64,000 nucleotides of DNA from Minisyncoccota bacterium (lineage in GTDB: Bacteria; Patescibacteriota; Minisyncoccia; Phycocordibacterales; UBA9973). Numbering within the stretch: the stretch's first letter is position 1; every line of letters begins with the position of its first letter. The notes under the pieces were generated by a model. The model did no database searches and was not told the origin of the DNA. It worked only from the letters and a program-made list of their open reading frames with translations. The stretch is taken from positions 124-64,123 of the forward strand of contig JBAZXM010000001.1 in the NCBI GenBank assembly GCA_041659845.1, read 5' to 3'. Below, in pieces: positions 32,252 through 35,341 of this stretch. The translations under genes were made by a program, and so were the position numbers.

Positions 32252-35200
32252 ATGAAGCAATACGATCACCTAAAAATCGAAAAGAAATGGCAGAAGGAAT
32301 GGGAGGCGAAGAAGGTTTACAAGACTGCTAATCCCGGCAAAATGAAAAAGCATTATGTGCTTGATATGTTTCCATACCCGTCCGGTGCGGGCCTTCATGT
32401 CGGCCATCCACGCGGATATATTGCAAGTGATGTATATGCGCGCATGAAGCGCATGCAAGGCTTCAATGTTCTTCACCCTATGGGCTTTGACTCATTCGGA
32501 TTGCCGGCAGAGCAATATGCAATACAAACAAAGAAGCACCCAGGGCCTTTCACTGAAAAGCTTGTGGAGCTCTACAAGAAGCAGCTTGAGATTATAGGCT
32601 TCTCATATGATTGGAGCAGGGAAGTCGCGACGCACAGGCCTGAATATTACAAATGGACGCAGTGGATATTTTTAAAACTCTATGATGCCTGGTATGACCA
32701 AACAAAAGATAAAGCGCGCGATATCAGTGAGCTGGTAAAAATTTTTAATAAAAATGGCAATGAAAATGTGAATGCTGTGTGTGATCAAAACACACCAACT
32801 TTTTCCGCGAAAGAATGGAAGCAGATGAGCGAGATGGAAAAGCAGAATATGCTCATGAAATATCGCTTGGCATACGAAGGCTATAGCGAAGTGAATTGGT
32901 GCTCGAAGTTAGGAACGGTGCTTGCGAATGATGAAATTGTAGATGGGCCTGACGGCAAGCCAGTCTCCGAGCGCGGCGGATTCGGAGTAGAAAAGAAATC
33001 CATGCGACAGTGGTTTATGAGAATAACTGCATATGCAGATAGATTACTTTCAGGCCTCGAAGGTCTTGATTGGTCATCACATATAAAAGAAATACAGAAG
33101 AATTGGATAGGGAAGAGTGAGGGGTCGGAGATCAGTTTTAAAATTGTTTCTGGAGATAAAAAAGATCTAGATAATCCCTTAGGTAGGAGAACCGACCTAG
33201 GATCTATTACAGTTTTCACTACAAGGGCTGATACGCTTTTCGGCGTCACCTATGTTGTTCTTGCGCCGGGGCATTTATTTCTTGAAAATATTAAAACTAG
33301 AATTTCAAATTGGAAAGAAGTTGAAAAATATCTTGATGTAATAAAAAACAAATCTGAAGAAGACAGAATAAAGGAAGGTGAAAAAACAGGTATTGAATTA
33401 AAGGGTATCATGGCAATCAATCCTGCAAATGGAGAAGTGGTACCTGTCTGGATAGCTGATTATGTCTTGGCAAATTACGGTACTGGTGCAGTAATGGCTG
33501 TGCCTGCACACGATGAGCGTGATTTCGAATTTGCGAAGAAATATAAATTACCGATTCGTGATGTTGTAGCAAAAATGATTGGCGAACATCATCATGAAAA
33601 TAATATTCGTGACGTTGCAGAGGGTGTCATTATTAAAGACGACCAGGTTCTTGTAATGGAATATAAAAATCAATATGGTTTGCCGGGTGGAGGAATTGAA
33701 GAAGGTGAAACTCCTGAGCAAGCATTATTAAGAGAAATCAGAGAAGAAATCGGGTATACAGATGTTGAAATTGTCGAATATCTAGGACAAGCAAATCGTT
33801 ATTATTTCTCGGATCGAGATCAAAAGAAAAAAGTAAGACATGCATATGGATATGTAGTAAAAATACTAAGTAACAAAAAAAACCCTACTGCTCCTCATGA
33901 AATTGATAAGCCTGTATGGCTCCCTATATCGGAAGCAATTCAAAAAGTTCAACAGAGTCCAATCTATTACCAAAGTAATTTTATTGACCGGGCGTTTAGT
34001 GGTATGGGGCAATGTTTTGTTGATAATGGCGTTTTGATTCAATCAGGGCAATTTGACAGCTTAACTTCTGAAGAAGCTCGTAAGAAAATTACCGAATTTG
34101 TCGGAGGTAAATTGATCACTAAATACAAAATGCGCGACGCGATTTTTGCTCGGCAGAGATATTGGGGCGAGCCGATTCCGCTTTCGACTGACAAGGATGG
34201 GATTATTCATGAAGTCAAAAAACTTCCACTTAAACTCCCAAATGTGAAATCATACGAGCCGGCAGGCACGGGTGAGAGTCCGCTTGCGGGAGTGAAGGAT
34301 TGGGTCAAGCATGGCTACGAGACAAATACCATGCCTGGTTGGGCGGGAAGCTCATGGTATTTCTTGCGTTACATGGACCCAAAAAATAAAAGTGCAATAG
34401 CAAGCAAACAAGCGATCAAATACTGGAAAGATGTGGACATGTATGTCGGCGGTGCAGAGCACGCAACAGGGCACTTGTTGTACTCGCGTTTCTGGCACAA
34501 ATTCTTGAAAGATATCGGCATTGCACAGACAGAAGAACCATTTAAAGCGCTTCGCAACCAAGGCTTGATAGGCGGTGCTGATGGGCGCAAGATGAGTAAG
34601 CGCTGGGGGAATGTCATAAACCCTGATGAGATTGTAAAAACTTATGGCGCTGATACACTCCGTGTCTACGAAGCATTCATGGGACCTTTTGATCAATCAC
34701 TTCCGTGGTCCACAGAGAGCATTATCGGCTCACGCAGATTTATTGAAAAAGTTTGGAGGATGGGGGAGAAAACAATTCTCGCTTCGCATAATTCTTTTCA
34801 AAAAGGTCCTCGGGTCGCCCGTGCAGGTTTATCAGGGAAGAGCGGGCTCGACCAGACCGTTTTTGAAAAGAACTCTGCTGCGCTTAAGAAAGTGCTTCAC
34901 AAAACTATTAAAAAAGTTACGGAAGACATTGCGAATTTTAATTTCAATACCGCAGTCTCAGCGATGATGATTTGCGCGAATGAAATGGAAAAAGCTGAAT
35001 ATGTTTCCGTGGAAGATTTCAAAAAATTCTTACAAATTTTAGCACCATTTGCCCCACATGCGTCTGAAGATCTTTGGCGTGAGCTCGGTGAGAAAAAATC
35101 AATCCATCTTTCAGAATGGCCTCTGTATGATAAGAAAAAGATTATTGATGACACTATCACTATTGCCATTCAGGTTAATAGCAAAGTCCGCGCAGAAATT

Positions 35201-35341
35201 TCTATTCCTATTGATATGAGCGAAAATGATCTAAAAAAACTTGTTTTGGAAAATCCTGCGACCAAGCAATGGACAGAAGGCAAGGAAATAAAGCGAATTA
35301 TCCATGTCAAAGGCAAGCTCGTCAATATAGTTATTGCTTGA
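32252..35341 (+). CDS. leuS: Leucyl-tRNA synthetase carrying an in-frame ~140-aa Nudix-hydrolase domain insertion (nt ~33565..34015) between the editing domain and the leucyl-specific/KMSKS region
   Basis: HVGHPRGY (HIGH), KMSKRWGN (KMSKS), [19 protein letters not shown] editing-domain end; insertion contains perfect Nudix box [24 protein letters not shown]. Confidence 0.9.
   Translation: [1029 protein letters not shown]

Follow-up and report, generated by a model that had tools for sequence, protein, structure and literature searches.

A Nudix hydrolase domain nested in the CP1 editing domain of leucyl-tRNA synthetase in Parcubacteria

In this study, we found that the leucyl-tRNA synthetase (LeuRS) of a Minisyncoccota bacterium carries a Nudix hydrolase domain inside its CP1 editing domain. 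The gene, leuS, lies in a stretch of 64,000 nucleotides of contig JBAZXM010000001.1 (assembly GCA_041659845.1), referred to here as the window. We are close to certain that this is a real Nudix domain nested in a functional LeuRS. The architecture is inherited, selected and typical of Parcubacteria/Paceibacteria (Patescibacteria), and is not a one-off. Bacterial aminoacyl-tRNA synthetases (aaRSs) are usually viewed as architecturally conservative; accessory catalytic domains are mostly eukaryotic, and they are terminal rather than nested.

Nudix domain within the CP1 editing domain

The open reading frame (ORF) and the features used below are as follows (window coordinates, strand, amino acids [aa] of the protein).
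32252..35341, + strand: leuS ORF, bacterial-type LeuRS with nested Nudix domain; 1029 aa plus stop, uninterrupted
32396..32407, + strand: HIGH signature HVGH of the synthetic active site, aa 49-52; invariant in the 88-sequence family alignment
33098..33574, + strand: CP1 editing domain, N-terminal part, aa 283-441; PF13603 match
33218-33235, + strand: TTRADT editing motif, aa 323-328; invariant in the family alignment
33509-33523, + strand: HDERD editing motif (HDxRD), aa 420-424; invariant in the family alignment
33575..34009, + strand: nested Nudix domain with linkers, aa 442-586 (145 aa); replaces a short variable CP1 loop
33689..33757, + strand: Nudix box, metal-binding catalytic motif, aa 480-502; exact fit to GX5EX7REUXEEXGU
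33800..33808, + strand: aromatic triplet YYF, aa 517-519, +15 to +17 after the box; candidate substrate-stacking X-loop, from family conservation and the 3i7u alignment
34010..34099, + strand: CP1 editing domain, C-terminal part, aa 587-616; PF13603 contiguous after excision, aligns to Thermus thermophilus (Tt) LeuRS from residue 375 onwards
34571..34603, + strand: GGADGR linker, aa 774-779, then KMSKR, aa 780-784; stands where the leucine-specific domain would be
34889..35215, + strand: anticodon-binding domain, aa 880-988; PF08264, E=3e-22

TIGR00396 (leuS_bact), the equivalog model of bacterial LeuRS, scored the whole window protein at 914.7 bits against a cut-off of 548.4, and Tt LeuRS (1h3n) aligned to it with E=5.7e-168. 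The editing-domain family PF13603 matched at E=1e-57. AlphaFold2 modelled the full-length protein with a predicted local distance difference test (pLDDT) of 87 and a predicted template modelling score (pTM) of 0.78. HVGH (aa 49-52), TTRxDT (323-328), HDxRD (420-424) and KMSKR (780-784) were invariant or nearly so among 88 relatives with and without the insert. The gene order leuS - TPR membrane protein - MurJ (- LepA) was common to the window, to insert-free relatives and to other insert-bearing relatives, and these are therefore orthologous leuS genes rather than spare paralogues. The host is the organism's orthologous LeuRS, predicted from its conserved motifs to be fully equipped for editing.

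The extent of the insert was determined from the alignment with 1h3n. The alignment broke at query residues 441/587, corresponding to Tt 364/375, and the extra segment is therefore aa 442-586, which replaces about 10 residues (Tt 365-374). The first-pass annotation of this DNA had placed an insert of about 140 aa at nucleotides ~33565..34015, very close to the 33575-34009 determined here. PF00293 (NUDIX) matched aa 456-564 with E=1.2e-19 in the whole protein and E=7e-21 for the insert alone (71-75 bits; gathering threshold 21.1). The insert alone was modelled by AlphaFold2 with a pLDDT of 88.5 and a pTM of 0.82, and the same region reached a pLDDT of 90-95 in the full-length model. A Foldseek search with the insert model gave 503 matches in the PDB at E<=1e-3, and all 50 listed matches were Nudix proteins, in agreement with the alpha/beta/alpha Nudix fold. 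The in-frame Nudix domain with an intact box that had been proposed from the letters alone was thus borne out by the matches to TIGR00396 and PF00293 and by the exact box, and the profile search and structure prediction of the isolated insert agreed with it.

About 20 residues separate the insert from HDxRD upstream of it, and in the full-length model it occupies a hairpin that links two beta-strands. In its presence, the PF13603 match was broken at about profile position 143-150 of 185; in relatives, the match ended at the insert, near position 143-148. When aa 442-586 were excised in silico, PF13603 became contiguous over positions 1-183 of 185, and the TIGR00396 match changed from three stretches with 914.7 bits to one stretch with 927.6 bits. 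In insert-free relatives, the loop at this site was hypervariable (1-57 aa). These results demonstrate that the Nudix domain is nested inside CP1, in a hypervariable surface hairpin loop. The earlier statement that the gene is no chimera at the codon level also holds, since the ORF is uninterrupted and the LeuRS sequence rejoins after excision. Its placement of the insert between the end of CP1 and the leucyl-specific segment was wrong: both flanks belong to CP1, with HDxRD upstream and PF13603 contiguous after excision. The downstream flank had likewise been misread as the leucyl-specific segment. The leucine-specific domain adjoins KMSKS, directly before it (PMC3643597). In the window LeuRS this domain is absent, as Tt 577-638 collapses to query 773-781 in the 1h3n alignment, and GGADGR stands in its place.

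An intein or another mobile element was considered as the source of the insert and rejected. Among the Pfam matches of the window LeuRS there was no Hint, intein, endonuclease or transposase family. The junctions (...VVAK|MIGE... and ...SGMG|QCFV...) were without intein junction residues, that is, C/S at +1 and a terminal HN followed by C/S/T.

Distribution, selection and history of the insert

We surveyed the 120 best LeuRS clusters, 55-73% identical to the window LeuRS, drawn from NCBI, JGI, ENA and Logan assemblies. A segment of 129-172 aa was present at exactly this site in 92 of the 120 clusters, and the other 28 had only 1-57 aa there. Of 80 GTDB species-representative Parcubacteria genomes, 59 encoded a Nudix domain about 20 residues after HDxRD, with a strict box in 46 of these 59. 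The 80 genomes carry the labels Paceibacterota, Nomura-, Zambryski-, Vogel-, Taylor-, Giovannoni-, Moran- and Magasanikibacteria, and Parcubacteria, and deposits from 2015-2016 are among them. The insertion is therefore widespread in LeuRS of related genomes of the candidate phyla radiation, a survey the first-pass annotation had called for. An exhaustive phmmer search with the insert over 1.84 billion representatives returned no relative below E=1e-30 and no clear donor lineage. Nine long phmmer matches were scanned with Pfam, and all nine were LeuRS with a nested Nudix domain, some with two or three copies. An insert-only search had returned free-standing Nudix proteins alone and would have suggested that the architecture is unique; it missed even the window protein, which the searched collection contains. 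This was a limitation of its word index, and the negative was discarded.

These data bear on the question of whether an assembly or gene-calling artefact could have joined a LeuRS gene and a Nudix gene. Nothing favours this beyond the unusual architecture itself. Against it stand the in-frame nesting, the perfect rejoining of the flanking LeuRS on excision, and the recovery of the same arrangement from different projects and assemblers. Its presence in about 90 independent clusters and in the genomes of 59 species excludes a chimeric assembly, and we regard an artefact of either kind as vanishingly improbable. One contig labelled 'Nitrospira sp.' (L084, JBEBJM010000004.1) encodes a Paceibacteria-type LeuRS that carries a nested Nudix domain and is 55% identical to the window LeuRS; this contig probably belongs to Patescibacteria and was mis-binned.

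The relatives also carry further nested enzymes. A second CP1 loop (reference aa ~306-311) holds a nested GNAT, ASCH, Ham1/ITPase or DUF559 domain in some of them, and HAD, serine hydrolase or extra Nudix copies (two or three Nudix domains in all) are nested elsewhere, giving proteins of up to 1417 aa. Relatives with such additional enzymes are P0033, P0052, P0088, P0163, P0048, P0086, P0152, P0154, P0184, P0149, P0151, P0189 and P0241. One relative bears the automatic JGI label 'leucyl-tRNA synthetase/ASCH/ADP-ribose pyrophosphatase (NUDIX)'.

We then examined conservation of the insert. The strict Nudix box was kept in 82 of the 92 inserts, and G481, E486, R494, E495, E498, E499 and G501 were each kept in 86-91 of them. 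The window insert forms a small subtype together with those of P0055, P0059, P0082 and P0085 (43-49% identity), and it is no closer to the main insert subtype than to free-standing Nudix proteins. With the DNA of P0055, P0059 and P0085, the ratio of nonsynonymous to synonymous substitution rates (dN/dS) of the insert was 0.06-0.11, and it was 0.055-0.13 when the box was left out. Amino acid identity in the same subtype comparison was 83-90% for the insert against 75-82% for the scaffold. Synonymous divergence (pS) there was 0.50-0.59 for the insert, below the 0.69-0.80 of the scaffold. Since dN/dS is low also outside the box, the whole Nudix domain is under strong purifying selection.

A further explanation is that the domain is a non-catalytic or neutral passenger, which would either modulate LeuRS as a nucleotide-sensing or structural module or, as a selfish or hitch-hiking insertion, be tolerated while bringing no benefit. 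Its distribution among close relatives is patchy. Overall, inserts have diverged far more quickly than scaffolds (mean pairwise identity 28% vs 67%), the box is degenerate in 10 of the 92 inserts, with P0043, P0101 and P0138 looking decayed, and insert and scaffold histories disagree at depth. All of this would suit a passenger. It accords poorly with a dN/dS of 0.06-0.11 over the whole domain, with the strict catalytic box in most inserts, with the lack of intein, Hint or transposase signatures, and with a base composition that the insert shares with the whole CP1 region. We consider a passenger improbable. The 'parasitic insertion' that had been suggested at first thus fits the patchy presence and absence, and is contradicted by the strong purifying selection.

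Base composition was also examined. The insert has a GC content of 0.36. Its GC content at third codon positions (GC3) is 0.23, whereas the remainder of leuS reaches 0.42; a GC3 as low as that of the insert occurs in 6% of the comparable windows elsewhere. GC3 was 0.22-0.30 over the whole CP1 region (aa ~241-560, 32972-33930) and 0.42-0.52 in the catalytic core. A foreign origin on the ground of base composition was rejected, because GC3 is low throughout the CP1 region and not just in the insert. Fission or fusion with an adjacent gene was likewise rejected, as no Nudix gene lies within +/-10 kb of insert-free leuS orthologues; in the 64-kb window itself there is no second Nudix domain.

In a neighbour-joining tree of the scaffolds, insert-free LeuRS were scattered as sisters of insert-bearing ones. 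Given this scatter and the short hypervariable loop, the module has been repeatedly lost or gained and is dispensable for LeuRS. Where the nearest insert was at least 60% identical, its median scaffold rank was 3, that is, recent relatives co-inherit insert and scaffold. When relatives are ordered by scaffold identity, the one with the insert nearest to that of the window comes 89th of 91 (66%, the highest value being 73%), and the two sets of distances were uncorrelated overall. This deep disagreement may reflect an exchange of the module as a cassette among leuS genes, its repeated acquisition at this loop, or saturation.

Possible function of the nested domain

The conservation of the box and the low dN/dS make it probable that the Nudix domain is catalytically active. 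On balance, we favour the explanation that it is an autonomous metal-dependent Nudix hydrolase, acting on a free nucleotide-type substrate and carried on a fully functional editing LeuRS. As a best guess, the module would hydrolyse free dinucleoside polyphosphates of the diadenosine tetraphosphate (Ap4A) type or non-canonical nucleoside triphosphates (NTPs), a 'house-cleaning' role. LeuRS, being expressed constitutively and tolerant of insertions, would be its carrier, and the module would have no role in aminoacylation or editing. That the domain is active and independent of LeuRS chemistry, and which class of substrate it takes, are things we infer, and our confidence that the domain acts autonomously on small nucleotides is middling. 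The modules nested in relatives are likewise small enzymes of stand-alone type (Ham1/ITPase, HAD, serine hydrolase, GNAT, ASCH), which supports autonomy.

To consider the substrate, we compared the insert with solved and curated Nudix enzymes. By profile and Foldseek searches, the nearest solved proteins were 2azw (E. faecalis), 3i7u, DIPP/NUDT4, BdRppH, NudG/NudI, MutT1 and RppH; as structural neighbours they showed 20-27% identity and template modelling scores of 0.6-0.78. The Aquifex aeolicus Ap4A hydrolase 3i7u ranked second by both methods, with DIPP, RppH, NudG, NudI and MutT close behind in score. The insert fell far below the cut-off of every NCBIfam Nudix equivalog and is thus without a curated subfamily: its best match, the RppH equivalog (NF001936 and related), gave 46.9 bits against a cut-off of 118, and the MutT equivalogs NF008044 and TIGR00586 gave 40.4 against 148 and 38.2 against 97.9. 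ApnA Nudix hydrolases have a conserved X-loop Tyr about 17 residues after the box, which stacks on adenine (PMC5389931). Positions 518 and 519 were F or Y in 73 and 81 of the 92 inserts, so that the site is aromatic and not strictly Tyr. They align with the 'WY' of 3i7u, and 2azw has the same feature. The nearest solved neighbours and this aromatic pair at the position of the ApnA Tyr point, though only modestly, to dinucleoside polyphosphates or to house-cleaning of the NTP type. ApnA specifically is a tentative and rather doubtful assignment.

Several points weigh against autonomous hydrolysis of free nucleotides on a LeuRS carrier. The substrate assignment is weak, as the nearest structure, 2azw, is uncharacterised, the neighbours show only 20-27% identity and template modelling scores of about 0.6-0.7, and all equivalogs stayed far below cut-off. 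The window insert itself departs from the family consensus at K523D, N526K, R527K and H552D. All long Nudix-containing relatives found were LeuRS, some with two to three copies, in a search that was seeded with LeuRS-Nudix and is biased towards common descent. The carrier model leaves this exclusive association and the multiple copies unexplained, and they hint at a LeuRS-specific functional link.

Such a link could be a coupling to LeuRS chemistry, in line with the local hydrolysis of Ap4A or misactivated adenylates that the first-pass annotation had proposed. Here the Nudix domain would destroy Ap4A or Ap3A, formed from ATP and leucyl-AMP, or released non-cognate adenylates, and would act in clean-up or pre-transfer proofreading. 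Cellular Ap4A comes mainly from aaRSs, and its asymmetric hydrolysis is mainly the work of Nudix enzymes (PMC10148737). The top structural and sequence neighbours include an Ap4A hydrolase, the X-loop aromatics fit, and Nudix domains recur in LeuRS, where one protein can hold as many as three. On the other side, LeuRS belongs to the class with low Ap4A synthesis, unlike LysRS, PheRS and HisRS (PMC10148737, citing Goerlich 1982). The module was lost many times while the catalytic and editing motifs of the scaffold stayed unchanged, and the insertion loop is hypervariable and apparently unconstrained. Furthermore, aminoacyl-adenylates are acyl-phosphate anhydrides, and Nudix substrates are nucleoside-diphosphate-X compounds. 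To our knowledge, the known aminoacyl-adenylate hydrolases are HIT proteins, not Nudix enzymes. Because LeuRS is a poor Ap4A producer, the module is often lost and adenylates are not Nudix-type substrates, the idea of coupling is weakened, and we consider it unlikely.

In a broader form of this idea, CP1 of Parcubacteria LeuRS would be a platform for nested enzymes that are functionally coupled to the synthetase, a multi-enzyme hub of quality control or detoxification whose modules are exchanged as cassettes between leuS genes. Targets of the Nudix domain at the acceptor-end or editing face could then be Ap4A-type by-products, capped or triphosphorylated RNA ends, or LeuRS inhibitors that mimic the adenylate. 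We regard such a platform as unlikely, too.

Activity on RNA ends was weighed as well. CP1 holds the acceptor end of the tRNA, and the domain might remove pyrophosphate, or Np4- or NAD-type caps, from nearby RNA 5' ends in the manner of RppH. RppH models were the best NCBIfam matches of the insert, BdRppH and E. coli RppH are among its structural neighbours, and ASCH, a putative RNA-binding fold, and GNAT nest at the neighbouring CP1 loop in relatives. Yet the RppH equivalog score lies far under its cut-off (47 vs 118). In addition, mature tRNA has a 5' monophosphate after RNase P processing, and therefore no RppH-type substrate is expected. We judge this activity to be distinctly unlikely. 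Autonomous hydrolysis of small nucleotides thus remains the explanation that we favour.

It matters in several respects that much of the Parcubacteria should have another enzyme, apparently an active one, within the proofreading domain of an essential synthetase. If the module is autonomous, it would show how episymbionts with reduced genomes may load nucleotide house-cleaning functions onto a scaffold that is essential and always expressed, and the CP1 loop would be a naturally validated permissive site, usable for protein engineering. If it is coupled to LeuRS chemistry, it would represent a new kind of synthetase-linked quality control. The window protein is identical to NCBI MFA5933631.1, 'class I tRNA ligase family protein [Candidatus Paceibacterota bacterium]'. 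Because the NCBI pipeline gives such proteins no name more specific than 'class I tRNA ligase family protein', the sole LeuRS of these genomes can escape metabolic reconstructions.

Genomic surroundings and comparison with known systems

Several neighbours of leuS were recorded. A stand-alone GIY-YIG protein of 84 aa (PF01541, E=2e-17; 31993-32247, + strand) ends 4 nucleotides before the leuS start codon; no GIY-YIG gene was found at that place in five related loci. Just upstream of the locus lie two nucleotide-metabolism genes, an HD_4 domain protein (HD hydrolase type of RelA/SpoT-like enzymes; window 29320-30246, + strand) and a dCMP/cytidine deaminase (30368-30865, + strand). A membrane-anchored protein of 132 aa (30900-31298, - strand) has a striking acidic repeat (…EDIGEIQEDVDEIQKDVDEISEDIDEIQKDVDEIQEDVDEIEEE…), and its DUF948/coiled-coil matches are weak and sub-threshold. 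Farther away, a 512-aa ORF (12280-13815, + strand) is a compositional outlier, with a GC content of 0.32 and a GC3 of 0.17 against a long-ORF mean GC3 of 0.36.

No description of the LeuRS-Nudix architecture was found in the open-access literature that was searched. In a 2026 survey of domain insertions, the LeuRS editing domain was recorded as an insert only, never as a host (PMC13114784).

Among free-standing Nudix proteins, 2AZW, 3I7U, BdRppH (3EES) and DIPP/NUDT4 share the fold and the box with the window domain and align with it over the full length, with template modelling scores of 0.65-0.78. The E values of 2AZW and 3I7U were 7e-21 and 4e-19 in the profile search, and 3e-11 and 7e-11 with Foldseek. 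All four are free-standing and no more than 20-27% identical to the Nudix domain of the window, which is embedded in a domain of another protein.

The LeuRS of T. thermophilus (1H3N/2BYT) and E. coli (4AQ7/4ARC) share with the window LeuRS the HIGH and KMSKS signatures, CP1 with TTRxDT and HDxRD, and the anticodon-binding and C-terminal domains. The window enzyme differs from them in having a 145-aa Nudix domain for the Tt 365-374 loop, in lacking the leucine-specific domain, in its ZN1 cysteines, which are mostly missing, and in about 60 extra aa. The latter segment (aa 146-205, 32687-32866) lies in the catalytic/ZN1 region, is without counterpart in T. thermophilus LeuRS, is conserved in the family and is modelled with a pLDDT of 95-97; it represents a further insertion specific to the lineage. 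The sole stretch with a pLDDT<50 (aa 851-863, 34802-34840) is a loop rich in Gly, Ser and Arg that precedes the anticodon-binding helices and lies outside the family consensus.

The minimal LeuRS of Mycoplasma mobile resembles the window enzyme in one respect, since GKDG replaces its leucine-specific domain much as GGADGR precedes KMSKR here (PMC3643597). M. mobile LeuRS is also without CP1 (PMC3643597), whereas the window LeuRS possesses a CP1 whose editing motifs are intact and whose size is increased by the nested enzyme. The closest precedent for the architecture is isoleucyl-tRNA synthetase (IleRS) with GNAT, a bacterial class Ia aaRS with an extra enzyme domain that has its own curated model (NCBIfam NF040702, 'ileS_w_GNAT'). 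It involves another synthetase and another accessory domain, and LeuRS-Nudix is without an equivalent curated model.

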